The notes: generated by a model not told the origin, from the letters alone. Shown: positions 12,544 to 51,422, numbered from the stretch's first letter. The stretch: DNA of 64,000 nucleotides from Candidatus Bathyarchaeota archaeon (GCA_963714275.1 CAVQNT010000005.1:96001-160000), one strand, 5' to 3'. A program made the numbers and translations.

Positions 12544-13394
12544 ATGTCTCGTGAAGACCGTGTTCAATTAGTCGCAGGCATCGATGTTGGAGCAAGCACC
12601 ACTAAGGGCGTCATACTGGGAAAATCGGGAATAATACATCAATGTTTCATTGAAACCTTGAATGACAAGTCTTCAACTTTGCGAATTTTAAAAAAACTTC
12701 TTTCGAGGGTCGATGATGTTTCTTCAATAAAAAAAGTTGCTGTCTCAGGTGGCGATTCGCGGATAATTGTAAAAGAGTTCTTTGGGATACCAGTCCAGAA
12801 GGTAGATGAGATAGCAGCAACTGGCATAGGAGGTCTTTTCCTGTCAGGTAAGAATCAAGCATTAATCGTCAGCGTGGGAACTGGAACAGGTGATAATCAG
12901 CTGCCCGTAACAGTGGAAAAAGGATTAACCATGTTGGCGGCACAGGCGTTGGTGGAGGAACGGTTATGGGGTTGGCGAGAAGAATACTCGGTGTCAACGA
13001 CTTTCAGGATTTAGAAACTTTGGCATTAAAAGGCAACCTAAACCATGTTGATCTGACTGTGGGAGACATTGTGGGGGGACCTGTTGGGATTGTACCTGCT
13101 GAAGCGACCGCGTCAAACCTCGCTAGACTTGACGACGAAACTTTTCCGGAGGATGTGGCTGCTGGTATCTTTAACTTGGTTTCTCAGGTTGTGGGCGTTG
13201 TCTCAGTTATGGCTGCAAAATCCTGTAACCTCGAAGAAGACGTGGTTTTTGTGGGGAGATTAGTAAAAAGCCCATTAGTGTCAAACATCATCCATGAAAC
13301 TGTCAGAGTCTTCGGCGTGAAAGCCTTTGTGCCAGAAAATGGTGAGTATTGCATGGCTGTGGGGGCTGCATCGTACATTCTCAGGAATTATTGA
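12544..13394 (+). CDS. Type II pantothenate kinase-like (CoaW/Fumble, ASKHA); frameshift near 12900
   Basis: GIDVGASTTK, VDEIAATGIGG, VSVGTGT, HVGGTGVGGGT (shifted frame), KGNLNHVDLTVGDI, ASNL. Confidence 0.8.
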
Positions 13395-14108: not shown

Positions 14109-15293
14109 GTGGTTCATGTGAATAAGAACGTTAAGGTCATCTTTGTCTCAGGTCTCCTTTCTGCTTTTATTATTGGAATTTTTGAGCTTCTTTTTCCGTT
14201 CTACCTTGAATACAGGGGTATTTCACTTGTTGACATGGGTTTGATCTTCAGTGTTTCAATGCTTGTCATATCTTTTCTCCGCATCCTTCTGGGAGAGTAT
14301 GCTGACGTTTATGGCAAAAAGAAGGTCTATTTGGCTTCGTGCACTATGGGGATTGCGTCAAAGGCAGTCTTCCCTTTTTCATTTAACGAATTACAGATTC
14401 TGGGCACAAAGTTCCTGAATGATTTGCAGGACAACCTTCGATTAACGGTTCATAACATTATGCTTTACGAAAATGTGAGGAACTCTTATGCTAAACTTCT
14501 GTCATGGTTCACGACAATTGAATTCGTTCTTCAGGCTTCGGGTACCATTTTCTTTGCTTTATTCTTGTCTTACCTGAATTTTTCGGGGCTTTTTCTTATT
14601 CTTGCATCAGTGGAAGCTGCTAAATTCCTCATATTGCTATTGTACCGAGAGGACAACAGGAAAGAAGGCAAAAAATTGTCTCTTAGAGAGGCTTATAGCT
14701 TCAAGATTGAAAGGAACCTTCTTATTTTGTCTTTGACATCGGCTGTTGCGTCGCTCGGGTTCGGAATTGCCCACGGTTTCCTTTTGCCATTGTATTTTAT
14801 GGGTAAATACAACCTTGATGTTGCACAAATATCCATCATTACGGTGCTGCATAGGCTGTCTTTCATGACTACGCCTTTAGCCGATAGGTTCATAAGAAAG
14901 TTGGGACTGCGGTCAACATACATCTTTTCAACCTCAGCGTATGCTCTTTCTTTTTTGGTAATAGGTTTTTGGACTTTTCCGATTCCAGTGTTTGTGGCTT
15001 TGTTCCTCGTCCACGACCTTTTGGGAGGAGGAATCGGGATGACAGCGATGAGCGTAATTACGCAGAATCTTACCGACGATGAAACGCGTGCAAGGCAAAT
15101 TAACACTTTTAATGCAATCCAAACTCCTATGACGATTTTGGCTCCAAGCATATCAGGAATGTTGGCAGCAATGAGCTGGGACTACACCTTCATTGCTGGA
15201 GGATTTTTTTATTGCATCTCATTAGCCATTTTCTCCGTTCTCTTGAAAAGTGAATCTCTCATCCCAAAATCTACCATCAAACAAGAAGTTTAA
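14109..15293 (+). CDS. MFS transporter
   Basis: About 12 TM segments; GEYADVYGKK and ADRFIRKLGLR MFS loop motifs. Confidence 0.85.
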   Translation: MVHVNKNVKVIFVSGLLSAFIIGIFELLFPFYLEYRGISLVDMGLIFSVSMLVISFLRILLGEYADVYGKKKVYLASCTMGIASKAVFPFSFNELQILGTKFLNDLQDNLRLTVHNIMLYENVRNSYAKLLSWFTTIEFVLQASGTIFFALFLSYLNFSGLFLILASVEAAKFLILLLYREDNRKEGKKLSLREAYSFKIERNLLILSLTSAVASLGFGIAHGFLLPLYFMGKYNLDVAQISIITVLHRLSFMTTPLADRFIRKLGLRSTYIFSTSAYALSFLVIGFWTFPIPVFVALFLVHDLLGGGIGMTAMSVITQNLTDDETRARQINTFNAIQTPMTILAPSISGMLAAMSWDYTFIAGGFFYCISLAIFSVLLKSESLIPKSTIKQEV

Positions 15294-15430
15294 TTATTGC
15301 TGAAGACCATTAATCTCGAATCTTCAATAATTCAGAATACTGCTCTTAGGTTCCACTAAAAGTTAATTTTTCTGTCAGTATCTTGGATGTTTAAATACAG
15401 GCATGATATATAGAGAAATTAAAGTTTGAA

Positions 15431-15914
15431 CTAGTTTTTCAAGTATGTTCGGTAGTTCACGAGTTTTATGCTTTTTCGCGTAACTATTTCTTTAGTTTTT
15501 GGACTTAACAAACATTTTAATTCTGCTAGTCTATGATTTCCTACTCCTTCAGGCATCACGTGAGACGGTTCCGTATGCATAAGAGCTTGAGATTCAAGTG
15601 AGTCTACCAAGAGATGGTTAACTAACAACCAAAGTCCCGGAGTTAATTCATCAAGTTGCTTAGTGAGATTTGATTCCTTTTCTGAAGGATGAATAGTATA
15701 TACACCCGCAACAATCTTCTAGTCTGAATGACCTGAAATTGGCAGCTTATATTCCGCTGAAAGTTCCTTCACTACCTTAAGGAATTCTTTCTCTCTGCCA
15801 GATTCTTCGCTATCGCCTATGTAGTGTGTGTCAAGATAACATGGATTTACGCCCCATTTCATTAGAAGCTCAATTTGGGCTTTAATCTCATTTTTCACTT
15901 CAATGTAGTCAGGA
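15431..15914 (-). pseudogene. 3' half of YdjC/ChbG-family deacetylase, cut off by the integrated element; in-frame TAG at 15719-15721
   Basis: Manual translation: PDYIEVKNEIKAQIELLMKWGVNPCYLDTHYIG...SD*KIVAG...LTPGLWLLVNH...RLAELKCLLSP. This is the typical YdjC C-terminal half. Confidence 0.88.
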
Positions 15915-15932
15915 CAACAGAATAGTTAACTT
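15908..15932. repeat. Left attachment site (core GTCAGGA + arm CAACAGAATAGTTAACTT)
   Basis: The arm is an imperfect inverted copy of the right arm (reverse complement CAACTAATTAGTCAACTT). Confidence 0.85.
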
Positions 15933-15961
15933 TATATATTAATCAGTAGTATTCTTTCAGT

Positions 15962-17162
15962 ATGGCAAAATTAGAGTATCTTAAACAATATGGCAGCGTC
16001 CAAACCGTTAATGCATACAAAAGCGGTTTGAAAGATTTTTTCCAAGCAATCTATAACGAACGAAACGGGCTTGAAGGATTAGCTGAAAGATACCTTAATG
16101 ACAAGCGGAATTATGAAGAAGACATTCAGACCTTTTTAATAGCGATCAAGGACTACGCACCTAAAACCGTAAAACTTAGACTTACTGCAGTTCGTATGTT
16201 TCTTTTAGAGAATGGAATAGAGATGTCTCAACAGTTCTGGAGAAGGATAAGAGGAAGAGTAAGAGGAACGAGAGGCTCTAACGCTTGACAAGGTCCCGAG
16301 CAATGAAGAATTAAGGAAAATCATGACACACTTACCAGTTCAAGGAAAGGCTCTGTTTCTGACAATGTGCAGTTCAGGAATGAGGATCGGTGAAGCTCTT
16401 AGTCTTGTGCCTGAAAACATAGAGTTCGGAGATCCTACACGTATTAACATTCAAGCGTCGTTTACGAAGACCAAAAACTCGAGGATAGCGTTTATTTCAA
16501 AAGAAGCCAGCGAAGCCGTCGAGGAATGGCTCAAGGTCAGAAAAGACTATTTGGGTTCAGCCGTCGCAAGAAGCCGATTTGGAAAGTCTATTGATGATCC
16601 TAGGATTTTTCCATTCACAAGTTTTAATGCAAGGTATATTTGGAATATTGCCTTAAAGAAGACTGGAAACGGGAAAAAGGACACTCAGACAAACTATCAT
16701 CTTGTGCATCCTCACGTATTGCGAAAGTTCTTTCGGACTCGGATGGCTACAATTATTCCCGTCGACGTAACCGAAGCTTTGATGGGTCATGAAGGTTATT
16801 TGACTGAGGTTTACCGTAGATACACGCCTGAGGACTTAGCCAAGTTCTACAAGCAAGGAGAACTATCTATTTCAATATTCGGCGGCGTAGTGGATCTACA
16901 ACAGATTCAAAAACAAGTTGATGAAAAAGTAGATGATAAAATAGGAGCTTTGCAGAAAGTCATAGACCGTTATGCTACTGAAAATTTGGAGTCTAAAAGC
17001 CGTCTCTCTAGTATAGAGCTTGAAATCACACAATTATCAGAGATTTTCAAAGAATTTAAGAAGAAAGCTCTAAAAATTTTTCAACTGTCATATTTTCCTG
17101 TTTCAAAATTAAGACTTTCCGACCCAAAAAGACCATTGTTTTATCTTATCGCATTAAGATAA
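15962..17162 (+). CDS. Tyrosine recombinase/integrase (SAM-like N domain, catalytic domain, C-terminal coiled coil); frameshift near 16280
   Basis: TVNAY...YAPKTV N-domain; SSGMRIGEAL, TKTK, HPHVLRKFFRT, LMGH, YRRY catalytic residues. Confidence 0.93.
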
Positions 17163-17530
17163 ACTCAGGGGTCCGACCAAAAAACACCATATTTAATGTT
17201 ATATATGATAATATTAAATGGCTCATTGTTTTATCCTTCGCAATAAATCAGTTATAATTATCTAAACTAAGGATAAAGGCTGAAACAGCTATAATTCACT
17301 CAACTAAGAATATAATAAAAGTCATCATGAAGAATATAATTAAACAGCTATACTTTTGAGGCGAAAAGGCTAGGGTAAACACCTCAGATATGCCACTACA
17401 ATTTTTTAAACTGTTTCCATAAACTTATATACATCGTTAAGTTAGATCAGGGCATTGGTCATTAGGTTGTGCGTTTATGGTATGACGATAAAATCGCAAG
17501 ATAAACGTCATTCAAACCATAGGACAACAC

Positions 17531-17752
17531 TTGAAAAATTCTGAAAAAACGACTGAATCAGTAAAGATTCTCGACCACGATTTTGAATTTCCGTCTTGTA
17601 TTGGCAGAAAGACCGCTGAACCGCTGAGTACATGCAAAGGCTGCGAGGTTGCAAGCCTTTGTGAATGGCTGAAAATCAAGTTTGTTTCCCGAGAACCTGT
17701 AATCCAGTTCACGGAAAAATTTGAAAAAATTTTAGGAGCAATAAAAATTTGA
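17531..17752 (+). CDS. Small Cys-rich hypothetical protein (element cargo)
   Basis: C-x10-CKGC-x5-C pattern; co-oriented with the downstream cargo. Confidence 0.55.
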   Translation: MKNSEKTTESVKILDHDFEFPSCIGRKTAEPLSTCKGCEVASLCEWLKIKFVSREPVIQFTEKFEKILGAIKI

Positions 17753-17813
17753 CGAAGGTTTCAAGGCAACGACTGAAACGGAAAACACCAAGCACTGATA
17801 GAAGGAAAAGGTA

Positions 17814-17987
17814 ATGACTTTCAAGTTTTTCTTTTATGCTCCGTCAAGTAGAATCTTGTTCAAAATTTGCGACGTATGTAAAAAACCATTCGTAAATGGT
17901 GATTTATGCGTTTCAAGGCTTGGCGGATCTTCAATTCATGTTATCGGTCATTACTGTCAAGGTTGCTATGAAAAATTGTTCAGGTGA
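17814..17987 (+). CDS. 57-aa Zn-finger protein (not in ORF track)
   Basis: MTFKFFFYAPSSRILFKICDVCKKPFVNGDLCVSRLGGSSIHVIGHYCQGCYEKLFR; same Cys/His pattern as the next ORF. Confidence 0.75.
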   Translation: MTFKFFFYAPSSRILFKICDVCKKPFVNGDLCVSRLGGSSIHVIGHYCQGCYEKLFR

Positions 17988-17991
17988 CTGA

Positions 17992-18204
17992 ATGGTTTTT
18001 AGAACGTATGTTTTTCAGTCTTGGGCTCGGTTTTCAGGCTTGAGATGTGACGTTTGCGGTCACCGATTTGTAGAAAATGACATCGTAGTTACTAAGACTC
18101 AAGGTGCAAAAGAAAGGAAAAAATGGGAAAGAAAAAACGTCTTAACCCATTATTGTGGCAAATGTTATAATAATTTGTATTTTCAAGGGGAGGTGATTGA
18201 ATGA
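17992..18204 (+). CDS. 70-aa Zn-finger protein
   Basis: CDVC..F...D.V...HYCGKCY; GGTGA SD-like sequence upstream; tightly packed. Confidence 0.75.
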   Translation: MVFRTYVFQSWARFSGLRCDVCGHRFVENDIVVTKTQGAKERKKWERKNVLTHYCGKCYNNLYFQGEVIE

Positions 18205-18885
18205 AAAGAAGAACACCAATAAGACATCATGTTTCAAGCCATGTTCGGGATGGACATCATATCCACGATTATATGAGAGGTCGAGGGAACCGAGGAAATT
18301 CGTATGTTCGAAGGACTAGGATCCAAGAAGGGATTTACTGCAAAACTGATAAGTCTATAAAAACGAAACATTGCGGGAAATGCAGCGATAAGCTGAGAGG
18401 ATTATTCAACATCTCATGAGCCAAGAGCTTACCACGTGACCTTTGGATACTTAGACGGTTCTAATGAAGTCGTCGAAATAATTGCAAGGTCGCCAAAGGA
18501 GGCTTTACACGGTGCTGATAATAAGAGAAAACGAAAGGATCAGAGAGCTGTCTCAGTGGTCGTAACGAATTCTATCGGTGAAATCGTCGGAAAACTGGCT
18601 CGAGGAATCGGTTCAGGCGTCAAAAAGGTTGCTAAGGGAGCTATGATTTTAGGAAAACAAGCCTATTGGAAAGGTAAAGAGTTTGCTTATGAACATGAGC
18701 TCGGTGAAAAATTAAAGAATGTCGGTCGTTCTGCTGCTGTTGCACTAGCAAAACACCAAAAAAACGTTAAGGCTGAACAGCTCATAAGAAAAGCGTTCAG
18801 TTCTGACCGTGTCGAATCAGTTAAAGCAAGAGTCGAACTTAAACAAAAATATCCAGAAATCTACTTGGCGGCTCGTTTCAGGTGA
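18201..18885 (+). CDS. Basic hypothetical protein(s): His/Arg-rich 72-aa ORF and 149-aa ORF, possibly one frameshifted gene
   Basis: GGAGGTGA SD before 18201; RHHVSSHVRDGHHIHDYMRG. The frame of 18436..18885 stays open upstream (EPRAYHVTFG). Confidence 0.6.
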
Positions 18886-18933
18886 TAATATTGACTAAAA
18901 AGACCGATTTCAAGGGTTATAGAAGGTGACTTA

Positions 18934-19083
18934 ATGGACGTTTTAAATAACCTTGTTCAGTATCTCATGATTCACCCTTGGCATTGTGTTTTAGCTGTTG
19001 CGATTGCTGGCTCTGTAATTTTGTATTTTTTGTATGACTGGCTCGGAAATCAGTCCTCGAGACCTCGGAAAAGTGGATGGTGA
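18934..19083 (+). CDS. 49-aa single-pass membrane protein (not in ORF track)
   Basis: MDVLNNLVQYLMIHPWHCVLAVAIAGSVILYFLYDWLGNQSSRPRKSGW; AAGGTGA SD upstream. Confidence 0.6.
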   Translation: MDVLNNLVQYLMIHPWHCVLAVAIAGSVILYFLYDWLGNQSSRPRKSGW

Positions 19084-19562
19084 AGACTTAGGCATTTGTA
19101 GAGGAAAAGCTCGACCTTTCAATGTAAAAGATGCCCATTGTATGAGCTAACTGTCTATTTAATAAAAAATTAGTAAAAATCGGCGATGGTGACGCTGACG
19201 CTGCGTTACGATATCAACGATGGACCCCTTAGAACCTTGTTTTAGTAAACCATTTAATAAACTGAAAGCCATGATTCAATATAATTAGTAATCTTAAGTC
19301 TAAGATATCGAATTCGAAGACCTCTTCGATGCAGTAATGCCCATTCCCTAGGGGAAAATAATTCTTTTTTAAGGTTCTTTTAATGGTCTCATACAAAATT
19401 ATATATATCACACTAAATAGTCATTTAGTGTGAAACGTTTGGTTTTCAGCGGAAATTACTAAAAAGTCTGTTTTCCGTTTAGAGGAAGAAGACATAAACC
19501 GAAAAAAAAATAAATGTGTGTGCTAAAACCCGACTTTAAAAATTTGGAAGTGTCGAAACAAT

Positions 19563-19802
19563 TTGAAGACTATAGCCCAAATAGTTAGTGAGAGTGGACA
19601 CAGTTACTATTTGGTTTTGAACGAAGTGTTAAGGCATAATGAAGAAGTTAAGAGCCTTGGTTACTGTTCACGCTGTAGAAAGGCGAAGAGTGAGGCTGAG
19701 ACGGTATTAATTCCGACTGGTTCACGCAGAGATTTGGAACACGCTGCAATGATGGAATATGCAATGGCTCAAGCCAAGGCTCAAGGTAAAAAAGAGGTCT
19801 AA
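19563..19802 (+). CDS. Small putative DNA-binding protein (HTH-like + CxxC)
   Basis: KTIAQIVSESGHSYYLVLNEV HTH-like helix pair, then YCSRC; directly upstream of the second recombinase. Confidence 0.55.
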   Translation: MKTIAQIVSESGHSYYLVLNEVLRHNEEVKSLGYCSRCRKAKSEAETVLIPTGSRRDLEHAAMMEYAMAQAKAQGKKEV

Positions 19803-19807
19803 AAACA

Positions 19808-20522
19808 ATGTTAAAGAAATCTAGATATCGAAATAAGAGAGAAGAAACTCTTTCAGCGGTTGAATTTGAAGGATTTTATGAGAATGCCAAGAAGCTTGAA
19901 GAACTTAGAGAAATTAATAGAAAAACGGCTGCAGGTCCAGCCGCATTGAGAATTAAACCAATTTCTGTTTGTGGTCTTCTCAGCATTCTTTTCTATACTG
20001 GATTAAGGATAACTGAGATTTGTGGTGATCCCATTCACATTTACAAAGTTAAAGTATGGGATAATACCACAAGTCCAAAAACTTGGACTGGTGAATATGA
20101 AGAAAAGAAGTCTGAAGAGATCCACGGCATACTTAAAAAGAATGTTGAAATTGTAGGAGATAAGTGAAGAATTACCGCAAGAGAGGTTCGAAAACGTGGC
20201 AAAAGACTTTCACCTCTTTTTATTCCGATTGACCGTTTAGGTGTTCAAAGTATAATTGAAGCTTGGAAGCTGGCAAAGGGTCCAGAAGATAGAATTTTTC
20301 CAATATGCCGCTGGACTGGCTGGTTTTTAATCTCAAATGTTACGAACGGGCGATTATATCCTCATTATTTTCGCCTCAATAGAGACTTCAAAATTCGCAG
20401 AAAATAAGAAGACTACATTAATAGAATTATTAGCTTGGTTCGGCTGGAAACAACCTGAAACCGCAAGTCACTATTTAATTGCTGCGGGACGAACGACCGA
20501 AAATATGGCTGACCGATTATAA
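19808..20522 (+). CDS. Compact (catalytic-domain-only) tyrosine recombinase; two frameshifts
   Basis: LFYTGLRITEI, then in shifted frames KRGKR...LYPHYFRLNR and WFGWKQPETASHYL (R, K, HxxR, W, Y set). Confidence 0.85.
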
Positions 20523-20568
20523 TTATGACAGTGGAATGATAGCTGGCTACGGCTGAGAGATTATAAAT

Positions 20569-20592
20569 AAGTTGACTAATTAGTTGTCAGGA
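20569..20592. repeat. Right attachment site (arm AAGTTGACTAATTAGTTG + core TCAGGA)
   Basis: Mirror of the left site; the core is duplicated. Confidence 0.85.
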
Positions 20593-20915
20593 TTACTGTC
20601 AAAGAATTCCCGTGGAGACCTATGAAAAAAGCCATCATCATCCGTGATGCTTGATAAGTGGTCATATGGAAGCACTGGCCTCCATGGGTATCCTCTCCAT
20701 TCTCCAATGACTGCCAGATGGACGCCTAAGCACCAAGATGGATTAACCTTCGCCATTTCAGCTGCTTCACGAGCCCAAGGAGTAGGTGCCAATATGGCAG
20801 CGCAGGTTAGAATACCTTCTTTAAAGGCTTTGGACACAGCCAAGTTGCATGAATGCAGACTGCCCATGCCGTCGCCACGGACAATAAGCTTAATGCCTTT
20901 ATCTGAGGATCGCAT
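20580..20915 (-). pseudogene. 5' half of YdjC/ChbG-family deacetylase, truncated by the element
   Basis: LIVRGDGMG...N.AV, G.LT.A, LGVHL...GEW...WRP. Ends at NPD|N* exactly at the att core. Confidence 0.9.
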
Positions 20916-20994
20916 AGTATCGCCTGCTGTGAATATTATTGACTATGTTTTTTCAAAATTTTTTGTTAGTTGTTAGTAACCCATCGTAAAATGA

Positions 20995-21409
20995 TTATGG
21001 GAGTCTAAAGTAGTATCTTGGCCATTGAGGCCATGTTGAAGAGGACTCGGTGTCGAAGTCTACTTCCAGCTCGATTCCAACCTTTAACTTTTCGTGTTCA
21101 ACGTTTCTTATCATTCCAGGCAGCCTAAGCCCATTTTCCAACTCTACGATGCCGTATGCGTAGGGAGCCATGTTCTGAAACAGTTCAGGAGCAATGTGGA
21201 TAACGGTGTATGTCGCCAGTTTCCCTCTCGGCTTAAGCTGGGTCCATGCAAGCTCTTTTGAATAGCAGTTTGAACACACGGGTCTCGGGGGCAAATACAA
21301 GGTTCCGCATCGAGCGCATTTAGCTGCCATCAGCTTTCTCTTTCAAGGACTTGAAGAACTGCTCAATAGTGAACGGAGGCACATTAACCTGCTGACCTGT
21401 TCCTTCCAT
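20995..21409 (-). CDS. DUF35 (Zn-ribbon/OB-fold) thiolase partner; frameshift near 21335
   Basis: CARCG..YLPPRPVCSNC, GKLATYTVI, PY..GIVELENG; abuts the thiolase. Confidence 0.9.
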
Positions 21410-22590
21410 CATTTACTCCTCCTGAAAACGTGGACCAGACACGAAGCTCCACTTCCGCCAAGATTTTGCGTCAAACCAACACTGCAACCTTCGACCTGCC
21501 GTTTTTCAGCTTGCCCCGTTAACTGAAGGAAAATTTCGTACACCTGAGCTATGCCTGTTGCACCAACCGGATGCCCTTTAGATTTTAAGCCGCCACTAGT
21601 ATTGACTGGAAGGTCTCCATCCAAAGTTGGCACGCCCTTTTCGATGAATTTTCCTCCTTCTCCAGGCTTACAGAATCCCAAGTCTTCGTAGGCGATTAAT
21701 TCAGCTATCGTGAAACAATCGTGCACCTCAGCTATATCTACGTCGGCAGGTTTTATACAAGCCATATTGTAGGCTTCTTTCGCTGCGTTTATGGTAGCTT
21801 TTATTGAGGTGAAGCTTTCCCTTTGGAAAAGTCCAAGGGTGTCGCTTGCGTGACCTGAACCTGTTATGTAAACCGGGTTATCTGCGTATTTCTTGGCAAT
21901 CTCCGGTTTCGTTAGAACAACGCAGCTGGCTCCATCCGAAATTAGGGAGCAGTCATAAAGCTTAAGGGGGGTCGCAATCATCCTCGAAGCCATCACTGTT
22001 TTAAGCGAAACCTCTTTTTGGATGTGGGCCTTCGGATTTAAGGAACCGTTATGGTGATTTTTCACCGCAATGAGACCCATCTGCTGCTCAGTTGTGCCAT
22101 ATTCATGCATGTGAGCCGTAGCCATCAACGCGAAGAGTCCCGGAAACGTGATGCCGTTCCACTGTTCAAAAGGATAGTCTGCTGCCATTCCCAGAAACTC
22201 GGTGGTTTCTAAAGTGGTTTTCTTCGTCATCTTCTCGAACCCGCCCACCAGAACAACATCATAGAAGCCGGATAGTATGCTGAAAATCCCAGTCCTCAAC
22301 GCAGCGGCAGACGAAGCGCACGCAATCTCAGTTCGGATTGCTGGAACAGGCAGAAGCCCTGCCCAGTCTGAAAGCATAGGCGCCGAGTGACCCTGGTGTT
22401 CGAAGCTTTCGCTCATCATGCCGATGAAGAGACCTTTAACGTCTTTTTTCGGGTTCAAGTTTGGGCATCTTTCAAAAGTTTCTAATGCTGCTTGGGCGAA
22501 CAGTTCTCTTCCTGAAAAGTCTTCCATCTTGCCGAACTTGGACAACCCCGCTGACACGATGGCGACAAGCGGCTTTCCTTTCAACGCCAA
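21409..22590 (-). CDS. Thiolase (acetyl-CoA acetyltransferase, archaeal/SCP2-like)
   Basis: ACASS, KNH.NG..NP.A, DCS..SDGA, EVHDCFT, NTSGGLKSKGHPVGATG. Confidence 0.93.
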   Translation of the reverse strand: MALKGKPLVAIVSAGLSKFGKMEDFSGRELFAQAALETFERCPNLNPKKDVKGLFIGMMSESFEHQGHSAPMLSDWAGLLPVPAIRTEIACASSAAALRTGIFSILSGFYDVVLVGGFEKMTKKTTLETTEFLGMAADYPFEQWNGITFPGLFALMATAHMHEYGTTEQQMGLIAVKNHHNGSLNPKAHIQKEVSLKTVMASRMIATPLKLYDCSLISDGASCVVLTKPEIAKKYADNPVYITGSGHASDTLGLFQRESFTSIKATINAAKEAYNMACIKPADVDIAEVHDCFTIAELIAYEDLGFCKPGEGGKFIEKGVPTLDGDLPVNTSGGLKSKGHPVGATGIAQVYEIFLQLTGQAEKRQVEGCSVGLTQNLGGSGASCLVHVFRRSK

Positions 22591-22779: not shown

Positions 22780-22870
22780 GCCTCGGTGGCTTAGCGGTTA
22801 GAGCAACAGCCTTGTATCCTCAAAAAAGAAAGAAAGTTGTGGATCGCGGGTTCAAATCCCGCCCGGGGCT
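22780..22870 (+). tRNA. tRNA-Thr(TGT) with ~18-nt anticodon-loop intron
   Basis: GCCTCGG/CCGGGGC acceptor, ACAGC-CTTGTA[intron]A-GTTGT, GCGGG-TTCAAAT-CCCGC. Confidence 0.88.
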
Positions 22871-40337: not shown

Positions 40338-40414
<77 letters not shown>

Positions 40415-40610
40415 CTAGAATTATTATAAAAAATGATGTTTTAGTCAGCTAGCTTTTAGACAGTTTGTAGGTAGTTCGAGGAGTATCTTGAGAAGACATC
40501 AACGTCTTTTTATCAATTTTCTATGACTGTTTGGTTGCCTAAATAATTGTTATATATGCAACATTTGATAGCTAGAATCAACTCCTTGACTAAAAATTAA
40601 AATTACTTGG

Positions 40611-51330: not shown

Positions 51331-51422
51331 GCTCCGGTAGTATAGTCCGGTCAAGTATTCCGGCCTTTCGACCCAAAAATGGAAGACAGTCGGAAACCCG
51401 GGTTCAAATCCCGGCCGGAGCA
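51331..51422 (+). tRNA. tRNA-Glu(TTC) with ~17-nt anticodon-loop intron
   Basis: GCTCCGG/CCGGAGC acceptor, CCGGC-CTTTCG[ACCCAAAAATGGAAGAC]A-GTCGG, CCGGG-TTCAAAT-CCCGG. Confidence 0.92.

Follow-up and report, generated by a model that had tools for sequence, protein, structure and literature searches.

A YdjC-family gene of a sediment archaeon of the Bathyarchaeia (genome of 2.64 Mb, 91% complete) is split in two by a 4678-bp insert, and the same site occurs exactly empty in related populations. The insert is a small cryptic integrative element with two tyrosine recombinases, one long and one short. The stretch of DNA that we analysed, referred to here as the window, is 64,000 nt long. Our analysis makes it very probable that the element occupies a dispensable paralog and that its arrival was an ordinary disruption of the gene, not the making of a switch; an initial annotation had offered simple disruption as one of two alternatives, and the evidence favours it. 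The element would have entered at codon 109/110 by site-specific recombination of the tyrosine recombinase type, the crossover falling in GTCAGGA, 7 nt that the gene would share with a lox-like attP of the circular element. The recombinase genes would then stand just inside the ends, int1 (long) on the left and int2 (short) on the right, and we infer that one or the other acted. Insertion would thus amount to plain gene disruption, in a gene whose nonsense (TAG) allele also circulates without the element in a related population.

The two halves make up one gene of 268 codons (110 + 158), and the coordinates, frames and duplicated GTCAGGA given in the initial annotation were all recovered. The 5' half is a minus-strand ORF of 111 aa with the C terminus ...EFFDSNPDN*, and the frame of the 3' half opens with PDYIEVKNE... 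and contains a single in-frame TAG. When compared with the Pfam profile YdjC (PF04794, 266 positions, gathering cut-off 29.7 bits), the 5' half scored 72.2 bits over profile positions 1-89 and the 3' half 38.2 bits over positions 97-264, both above the cut-off and jointly covering the profile. The 5' half also matched PDB 8jqe (E 2.2e-15). We aligned the halves with four full-length metagenome relatives (262-273 aa) and the ortholog from genome G009. All five are colinear through the junction with no gap (...EFFNSNPDYSEVKNELKAQIELL...), and the closest full-length relative, P0122 (268 aa), is 88% identical to the 5' half. Instead of homologs carrying the halves as separate genes, colinear relatives were thus found. 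The double label YdjC/ChbG survives in its first part, given the PF04794 matches; 'ChbG' is too specific a name because the full-length ortholog P0122 lies far under the cut-off of the ChbG equivalog (NCBIfam NF002559; 60.9 bits against 227). Judging from its sequence, the host gene is a sugar-deacetylase-like member of the YdjC family.

Features of the interrupted gene and of the element (window coordinates)
Feature	Position	Strand	Basis or remark
3' part of interrupted YdjC-family gene	15431..15913	-	codons 109-268, PDYIEV... to stop
In-frame TAG nonsense codon, codon 175	15719..15721	-	Glu/GAG in relatives
Left core copy GTCAGGA (attL), 7-nt crossover core	15908..15914		sequence and joints in X1, X2, X4
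Left-end arm of element (AACAGAATAGTTAACTT...)	15916..15935		half of inferred dyad-symmetric attP
int1, long tyrosine recombinase, ~400 aa	15962..17162	+	two frames: 15962-16288 and 16263-17162
AT-rich non-coding stretch, GC down to 0.31	17163..17530		two ~30-nt direct repeats
Seven small ORFs, no assigned function	17531..19802	+	ORF list (next two lines)
Small ORFs 1-4	17531-17752, 17814-17987, 17992-18204, 18201-18419	+	
Small ORFs 5-7	18436-18885, 18934-19083, 19563-19802	+	
int2, short tyrosine recombinase, ~200-230 aa	19808..20522	+	alignment with intact homologs
Right-end arm of element (...AAGTTGACTAATTAGTT)	20566..20585		other half of inferred dyad
Right core copy GTCAGGA (attR)	20586..20592		sequence and joints in X1, X2, X4
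5' part of YdjC-family gene	20580..20915	-	codons 1-110, then N and element-borne TAA
Codon 16, GGC (Gly) against Asp in relatives	20868..20870	-	GDDMG to GDGMG; corresponds to metal-binding Asp of ChbG

The two copies of GTCAGGA lie 4678 nt apart, with no further copy on either strand within 15000-21500. We compared the locus with four other metagenome runs (X1 to X4). Contigs of three of them, drawn from three studies (X1, 1455 nt; X2, 3674 nt; X4, 229 nt), join 15907 to 20586 exactly and skip precisely 4678 nt, the seven letters fitting either side. These contigs are ~99% identical to the flanks (in X1, 10 differences and 3 gaps over 1455 nt) and come from other strains in other samples, not from the window's own population; a search for runs with the window's own strain gave none, the closest run sharing 0.21 of words and lacking the element. 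The joint reads ...SNPDYIEVK..., with the frame rejoined and colinear with the orthologs, which bears out the earlier proposal that precise recombination at the 7-nt core yields a continuous frame. The empty site that the initial annotation had called for is thus present in related populations, and its exact occurrence in nature therefore confirms the insertion model. Occupied junctions were seen in none of the four independent runs compared, and the element itself was absent from these runs and from the protein collection.

At the ends of the element, we infer a lox-like attP made of two imperfect inverted ~17-nt arms around an 8-nt spacer. The arms are complementary at 14 of 20 positions across the spacer; of 63,800 window positions, 3 attain this level (at least 14/20). 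Relative to the left junction the arms are displaced by one base. Simple recombination sites such as lox and FRT consist of inverted recombinase-binding arms around a spacer, and the putative attP resembles them in having two inverted binding-like arms and a 7-8-nt spacer that would hold the crossover. It differs in that the arms are imperfect (13/17) and that the target site in the gene has no comparable symmetry (6/20). The left arm is followed by a TATA-like TTTATATA, recognised by eye, ~25 nt ahead of the start of int1.

The earlier reading of the insert as an integrated element is supported. It is single-copy in the 2.64-Mb genome, its GC content is 0.31-0.43 compared with mostly 0.40-0.50 outside, and the 90% cluster of its integrase has one member on one contig, the best other homolog being 65% identical. 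Neither recombinase gene extends beyond the insert: int1 starts 48 nt past the left core, and int2 ends 64 nt short of the right core. In int1 the frame is broken by one extra G at 16274/16275, which in an alignment with intact 378-414-aa homologs falls between GTR and ALTLDKVP; the conserved R, H-x-x-R, H and Y positions are retained. Its C-terminal part matches PF00589 (53.5 bits, cut-off 27.1), and int1 further gave 18.2 bits with PF02899 and a match to the phrog_1 integrase. As assembled, int2 is interrupted twice, by a TGA in frame (20165-20167) and by a shift of the reading frame at ~20384, directly after HYFRLNR, and its own fragments gave no Pfam match. Among the 32 members of the int2 family, 20 match PF00589 at E<=0.01 (best 2.4e-13), R58, K112, H167 and Y202 are invariant, and the family aligns with that of int1 at an hhalign probability of 93.7%. 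A low-confidence model (pLDDT 60.6) of the int2 homolog from G310 returned topoisomerase IB, XerH and Cre as top Foldseek matches, none at E<=0.001, and VIA-align gave Z values of 5.4-5.7 over 147-160 residues with Cre, XerA and topoisomerase IB. Against the cut-off of 220 bits for archaeal XerA (NCBIfam NF040815), the window reaches 42 bits and an intact paralog 72.5 bits. The pairing of a long with a short recombinase recurs in one other element, at locus L060 of a Bathyarchaeia MAG. The AT-rich stretch has its direct repeats at 17246-17275 and 17283-17312; an 82-nt copy, 83% identical, occurs at G000:C7:103047-103128. None of the seven small ORFs gave a Pfam family at or above cut-off or an informative PHROG; by eye, two contain paired CxxC motifs and one a hydrophobic stretch, and a search of 300 other genomes of the class recovered the 149-aa ORF in none.

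The target gene shows further signs of decay and of dispensability. At codon 16, position 20869 (C>T) gives GAC (Asp) in X1, X2 and X4, leaving the window alone among these with Gly, and the DD pair is present in 8jqe, 2i5i, the genome's own paralog and all orthologs. The cited portion of the work on kpChbG names D11 as a metal ligand and D10, D11, H61, H125 and H206 as the active-site set (PMC9402603); in the window the D11 equivalent is Gly, and the His positions were judged by eye. The Asp to Gly change could be a base error. An intact 268-aa paralog in the same genome (G000:C1:106468-107205) can cover the function of the target. The G009 ortholog has a TGA of its own at a Trp position. In X1, a ~90%-identical relative has 25 nt in place of 15374-20981, and therefore lacks the gene altogether; the same loose end occurs in X3.

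The in-frame TAG aligns with E in 5/5 orthologs compared. Position 15721 is C (GAG) in X2, X3 and X4, whereas the empty-site contig of X1 has A (TAG) there, and because this contig combines the TAG with an empty site, we consider the codon a real polymorphism that is independent of the element. Its independent presence in X1 shows that it is not a base-call error, and its occurrence there without an insertion means that it need not be post-insertion decay, as had been supposed. On grounds of parsimony the TAG would have come first and the insertion later; in the alternative order, the TAG allele of X1 could descend from a precise excision. Some archaeal lineages are known to decode TAG, and at L072, a locus of another MAG, ARAGORN predicted a tRNA that contains an intron and has the anticodon CUA. 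We nevertheless see practically no chance that the codon is decoded here, by pyrrolysine or other read-through, and the gene thereby kept alive. The Pyl gene search of the genome came out negative, with best matches of 35.4 bits for PylS (cut-off 178.15) and 19.1 bits for PylD (cut-off 150.05), no CUA anticodon was found among the 29 tRNAs of this 91%-complete genome, TAG is the stop of 190 of its 828 long ORFs (23%), and three populations as well as all orthologs have GAG at this position.

Among archaeal integrases, those of the pNOB8 type are non-suicidal, and our element resembles them in that each recombinase gene is whole within the element after integration. It differs from both pNOB8- and SSV-type integrases in that the target is not a tRNA gene and the site identity is just 7 nt. 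There is nevertheless a tRNA gene at a distance of 2.2 kb (window 22780-22870). SSV-type (suicidal) integrases, described in the cited text as having the att site within an int gene that is split upon integration (PMC7253208), were considered and rejected, as the att site here is not inside the int gene. The initial annotation was correct that the target is a protein-coding gene and not a tRNA gene, but in the wider archaeal group concerned such targets are no rarity: a survey of Thaumarchaeota places 14 of 68 integrated elements in protein-coding genes (Krupovic et al. 2019, PMC6563490). Our element shares with those described there integration by a tyrosine recombinase, a protein-coding target, sites verified against the empty sites of relatives and very short att sites (minimum 8 bp, median 17, in Thaumarchaeota), and, like the small ones, it has no recognisable replication or capsid genes (PMC6563490). 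In the same portion of that survey the insertions are 3'-distal in genes, and the example described supplies a new stop so that the gene survives (PMC6563490). In contrast, the element reported here lies mid-gene (codon 110 of 268) and destroys the gene, resides in a Bathyarchaeia host and carries two recombinase genes.

A transposon would offer another account of the junctions, since a 7-nt direct repeat and 14/20 inverted ends formally match the leftovers of cut-and-paste transposition, the repeats being a target-site duplication and the imperfect inverted repeats the transposon ends. We regard this as very unlikely: the insert ORFs scanned contain no transposase or casposase domain (Pfam, PHROG), two tyrosine recombinase genes stand at the ends, and the one-base offset of the arms from the left junction is what an 8-nt spacer, and not a pair of termini, would lead one to expect. 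That the insert is an assembly chimera, mis-joined into the gene, is hardly credible. The assembly is rich in local errors or pseudogenes and the occupied junctions recur in no independent run, but a chimera would not give an exact 7-nt duplication together with an in-frame rejoin, a recombinase gene at each end and dyad symmetry in the joined site. The skin element in sigK of Bacillus and the nifD and fdxN elements of Anabaena are developmentally excised intervening elements; like them, ours has its own recombinase and interrupts a coding gene whose frame precise excision would rejoin. Regulated excision of this type, rebuilding a working YdjC gene, had been the other alternative of the initial annotation, and both the continuous 268-codon frame and the existence of empty-site alleles would suit it. 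We hold it to be extremely unlikely, however, as the excised gene would keep the TAG and stop at codon 175, would lack the metal-binding Asp and would, unlike sigK or nifD, still be a non-functional pseudogene, with a TAG allele that exists alone in X1 and no Pyl decoding. In the assembly neither recombinase is intact, the interrupted gene is dispensable (an intact paralog is present and a relative lacks the gene), the empty sites observed are those of other strains, and there is no sign of regulated excision in these runs, which do not contain the source strain.

Ordinary disruption by an integrative element leaves the question of its present mobility, where our reading is least secure. Both recombinase genes are broken as assembled, and the element therefore looks immobilised. 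These lesions are possibly assembly errors, because many genes are broken across this assembly: among 49 ABC ATPase domains, 7 are split between frames and 2 more have an in-frame TGA (9/49, not at homopolymers), a GH57 gene changes frame twice and also contains a TGA, and a Fumble-type kinase gene is split (window 12544-13394). With frame breaks this common, a total of three lesions across the recombinases' 1.9 kb is no excess. As int1 keeps its conserved residues and the junctions are still exact, it is conceivable, if on balance doubtful, that the element remains mobile, leaving and re-entering precisely with no regulatory role in the host. Against this, the two lesions of int2 adjoin a host gene with two more, a clustering typical of real decay, the TAG of that gene is confirmed in an independent run, and the element is missing from all the data compared. 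Should the breaks be errors, the element might, though we think it improbable, still be active and belong to a so far undescribed class of small elements of the Bathyarchaeia with paired recombinases and a minimal lox-like site. If so, 7 nt of identity would be enough for precise entry into and exit from the middle of a gene, which would produce reversible knock-outs at the population level.

The minus-strand YdjC-family gene is divided as the initial annotation had described it, and the sequence, the ORFs, the matches to PF04794 (YdjC) and the colinearity of relatives bear out the two halves, their coordinates, the GTCAGGA repeats and the single in-frame TAG throughout. The 5' piece matches PF04794 with 72.2 bits over profile positions 1-89 and the 3' piece with 38.2 bits over positions 97-264 (cut-off 29.7 bits). 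The two copies of the GTCAGGA core are spaced 4678 nt apart, with no further copy on either strand within 15000-21500. Full-length metagenome relatives of the gene measure 262-273 aa, the closest being the metagenome protein P0122 (268 aa, 88% identity to the 5' half). The junction is gapless (...NPDY[S/I]EVK...) in four aligned metagenome relatives and in the ortholog from another genome, G009; the pieces therefore add up to 110 + 158 codons of a 268-codon gene. The name ChbG, also given to the gene initially, is not warranted, as its ortholog P0122 scores 60.9 bits where the cut-off is 227.

Features of the window, of its genome (contigs C1, C2 and so on) and of compared loci
Feature	Position	Strand	Remarks
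YdjC 5' part	20580-20915	minus	111 residues, ends ...EFFDSNPDN and stop
YdjC 3' part	frame from 15913 to 15431	minus	starts PDYIEVKNE...
In-frame TAG of YdjC 3' part	15719-21	minus	one
GTCAGGA copies	15908-14; 20586-92
int1 (long recombinase)	15962-17162	left to right (plus)	PF00589 53.5 bits; phrog_1; sub-threshold SAM-like N-domain
int2 (short recombinase)	19808-20522	left to right (plus)	own fragments without Pfam match
82-nt repeat stretch	17237-17319
Contig-7 copy of repeat stretch	C7:103047-103128 (L002:1501-1582)		83% identity
Weak integrase fragments near relative of 149-aa ORF	C2:225014-225530; C2:228052-228324
Fumble/pantothenate-kinase-like gene	12544-13394		split, two overlapping frames
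Broken-gene examples	C2:438371-438819; C1:69263-69714; C4:22777-23255; C5:17600-18507
tRNA genes	22780-22870; 51331-51422		Rfam, 91-92 nt, missed by ARAGORN; probably intron-bearing
tRNA gene, ARAGORN 'tRNA-???'	40338-40415		four-letter anticodon (gcgg); Rfam tRNA 52.3 bits; may have enlarged anticodon loop or small intron
Integrase of a different family	C4:14996-15397		adjoins tRNA-Pro gene C4:15550-15625
Empty-site contigs (runs X1, X2, X4)	joint 15907-20586		X1 1455 nt, depth 22; X2 3674 nt; X4 229 nt

We aligned contigs from the four best of 19 candidate metagenome runs (X1-X4) to window positions 14900-21500. The best run shares 0.21 of the sampled words, none of the 19 holds at least half of the window's words, and the window's own strain was found in no public run. 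In three of the four runs (X1, X2 and X4, from three different studies) a contig joins 15907 straight to 20586, omitting exactly 4678 nt, with seven letters that fit both sides; no X3 contig crosses the site. These empty-site contigs match the window flanks at about 99% identity, that of X1 differing by 10 substitutions and three gaps, and the right-flank indels seen across X1-X4 are all three intergenic. In the contigs of these four runs, to which the result applies, the interior of the insert is uncovered except by short conserved-integrase pieces that continue unlike it. Related populations thus commonly have the gene in one piece, and the window's genome has gained the insert; the empty-site contigs and the colinear relatives together confirm the insertion model. 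A foreign origin of the insert agrees with its single copy in the 2.64-Mb assembly, its lone integrase cluster and its lower GC content (0.31-0.43, against mostly 0.40-0.50 outside). Among viral contigs, 18 pattern matches to possible relatives of the element were obtained, of which none was confirmed.

All ORFs of the element run left to right, beginning with int1, which is the sole member of its own 90% cluster among 5.8 billion proteins, its next relative being 65% identical. Its family comprises 748 members at E ≤ 1e-10 among 1703 candidates scored, with Bathyarchaeia or Bathyarchaeota (also 'Nitrososphaeria') MAGs as source names. A scan of species-representative genomes gave 48 loci, the closest in Bathyarchaeia and distant ones in Thermoplasmatota, Archaeoglobi, Methanoperedens and Asgard MAGs. 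ARAGORN, which misses many archaeal tRNAs, placed a tRNA gene at most 1 kb upstream of the match at two of the 48 (L072 and L101); tRNA genes are therefore not usual neighbours of this family. The L072 gene (7312-7412; a Bathyarchaeota MAG distinct from the window's genome) is called as an intron-bearing CUA tRNA ('tRNA-Pyl') beside the integrase, and may be a mis-call. The window's genome has two paralogous int1-type genes, and no motif common to their upstream regions was seen.

Downstream of int1 lies an AT-rich non-coding stretch with two ~30-nt direct repeats, followed by seven small ORFs that have no family match at threshold in Pfam or PHROG. The 82-nt stretch holding the repeats recurs on contig 7, directly downstream of a recombinase-like ORF (L002 592-1481) and in opposite orientation; candidates for its role are an origin, an operator or the terminus of a different element. 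That ORF was rejected as a relative of int1 or int2, given no BLASTP similarity and no Pfam match. The element's 149-aa ORF has no match in 300 further genomes of the class and a single weak one in its own; this only relative (30% identical) lies about 3 kb from weak integrase fragments, which may be what is left of a related element.

Homologs of int2, 198-257 aa long, occur in 5 of the 300 other genomes of the class, and a profile of seven of them retrieved 2263 cluster representatives at E ≤ 0.001. PF00589 matches 20 of 32 sampled members at E ≤ 0.01 (best 2.4e-13) and none of the window's int2 fragments. Profile comparison relates the family to that of int1 with a probability of 93.7%, and R58, K112, H167 and Y202 are invariant, R170 nearly so. 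These sequence profiles settle the identity of int2 as a tyrosine recombinase; weak structural evidence on the fold would point in the same direction. To the short family (~175-250 aa; alignment A6) belong, among others, int2 and L051:1378-2052. One other locus, L060 in a Bathyarchaeia MAG, likewise pairs a long recombinase with a short one some 2 kb away. Its sequence upstream of the integrase that was closest in the genome-contig scan (L060:7597-7640) has in common with window 15916-15945, by eye, AACA..ATAG...TTAACTTTA[A/T]ATAT, a likeness that covers the window's left arm and a TATA-like box. At L060 we found no matching right end and no direct repeat whose arms form a convincing dyad (best 11/20 and 9/20).

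When the ends of the insert are joined around one core, 14 of 20 arm positions are complementary across an 8-nt spacer (GTCAGGAC), a symmetry reached or exceeded at 3 of 63,800 window positions; the target site in the YdjC gene has a symmetry of only 6/20. The joined ends would thus have the make-up of a simple tyrosine-recombinase site, whose crossover presumably falls within the 7 nt common to gene and element. A target duplication made by a transposase would give the same pattern on paper, but the scanned ORFs of the insert include no transposase gene. Neither recombinase gene extends beyond the insert, so integration was not of the SSV type. The nearby tRNA gene, 2.2 kb right of the element, is not its target. 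Elsewhere in the genome, the tyrosine integrase on contig 4 shows the classical arrangement beside a tRNA gene, in contrast to int1.

Both recombinases are broken as assembled. Alignment to intact homologs of 378-414 aa places int1 in two frames owing to a single additional G (16274/5) that falls between ...GTR and ALTLDKVP..., and int2 has a TGA (20165-7) in place of the L/V/I of its relatives, its frame breaking directly after HYFRLNR, at about 20384. Such damage is widespread: frame breaks, which do not fall at homopolymers, split 7 of the 49 clear ABC ATPase domains and an in-frame TGA interrupts 2 others, and greedy ORFs of at least 100 aa cover 74% of the genome. These broken genes reflect either assembly error or massive pseudogenisation. 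A GH57 gene beside a paralogous integrase, considered as a second interrupted gene, has two frame breaks of its own and a TGA and is not split by an element. Since frame breaks abound genome-wide, the three recombinase lesions do not exceed the background rate, and the element may still be mobile, although we regard this as rather unlikely. Even a mobile element would not rescue the switch, given the independent confirmation of the TAG.

The initial annotation had offered two readings, a simple disruption or a switch in which excision rebuilds the gene, as in skin or nifD elements, and had taken the TAG as a sign of post-insertion decay unless it was a base-call error or a read-through codon. 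Position 15721 is C in X2, X3 and X4, giving GAG (Glu) as in all orthologs, and A in the empty-site contig of X1, giving TAG; the TAG is therefore real and independent of the element, and a base-call error is excluded. Read-through fares no better: the best PylS and PylD matches lie far below cut-off (35.4 against 178 bits and 19.1 against 150), no tRNA-CUA is present among the 29 tRNAs of the genome (91% complete), and TAG ends 190 of its 828 ORFs of at least 300 codons. The genome does not decode TAG. In-frame TGA was likewise rejected as a recoded codon: its counterpart is the Leu of LSGG in an ABC gene, L/V/I in int2 and Trp in G009, and 272 of the 828 long ORFs end in TGA.

The interrupted copy reads GDGMG (Gly instead of Asp through position 20869) where X1, X2, X4, the orthologs, the paralog and two solved relatives have DD. 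A passage in PMC9402603 gives D11, equivalent to the second Asp, as a metal ligand in K. pneumoniae ChbG; judged by this alignment, the interrupted copy has lost a putative catalytic-site residue. An intact paralog on contig 1 (268 aa) is 47% identical. The ortholog in G009 (L010:1027-1860; another genus, 72% identical) has a separate in-frame TGA in place of a conserved Trp, so decay of this YdjC paralog appears independent in two lineages. In a relative of about 90% identity in X1 (with the same loose end in X3), 25 nt replace 15374-20981 (joint 15373/20982); that relative therefore has no YdjC gene, and the MFS transporter and DUF35-type genes are direct neighbours there. The interrupted gene is expendable, because its nonsense allele also circulates where the element is absent. 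In the most economical order, the nonsense mutation, common to X1, would have come first, the insertion next and further decay last; alternatively, the X1 allele may descend from a precise excision. With a TAG in the rebuilt gene and no TAG decoding, a lost Asp, an expendable gene and recombinases that are broken as assembled, the excision-controlled switch is not supported.

Among integrated elements of Thaumarchaeota, passages of PMC6563490 report 14 of 68 in protein-coding genes, with att sites down to 8 bp and insertions in the 3'-distal part of genes. In contrast, the present insertion is mid-gene and destructive, its host is a Bathyarchaeia genome and the element carries two recombinases. 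The term-matched passages of two papers on Bathyarchaeia (PMC10848311, PMC11697101) mention only proviruses. The int1-type long integrases form a family that spans many archaeal phyla, usually without an adjoining tRNA gene, and the short recombinases (~200 aa) form a large one that Pfam recognises only in part. The locus also serves as a warning that perfect rejoining of a frame on excision does not make a switch. It provides a clean, population-verified case of a mobile element inserted mid-gene in Bathyarchaeia, for which descriptions of small integrative elements are scarce.
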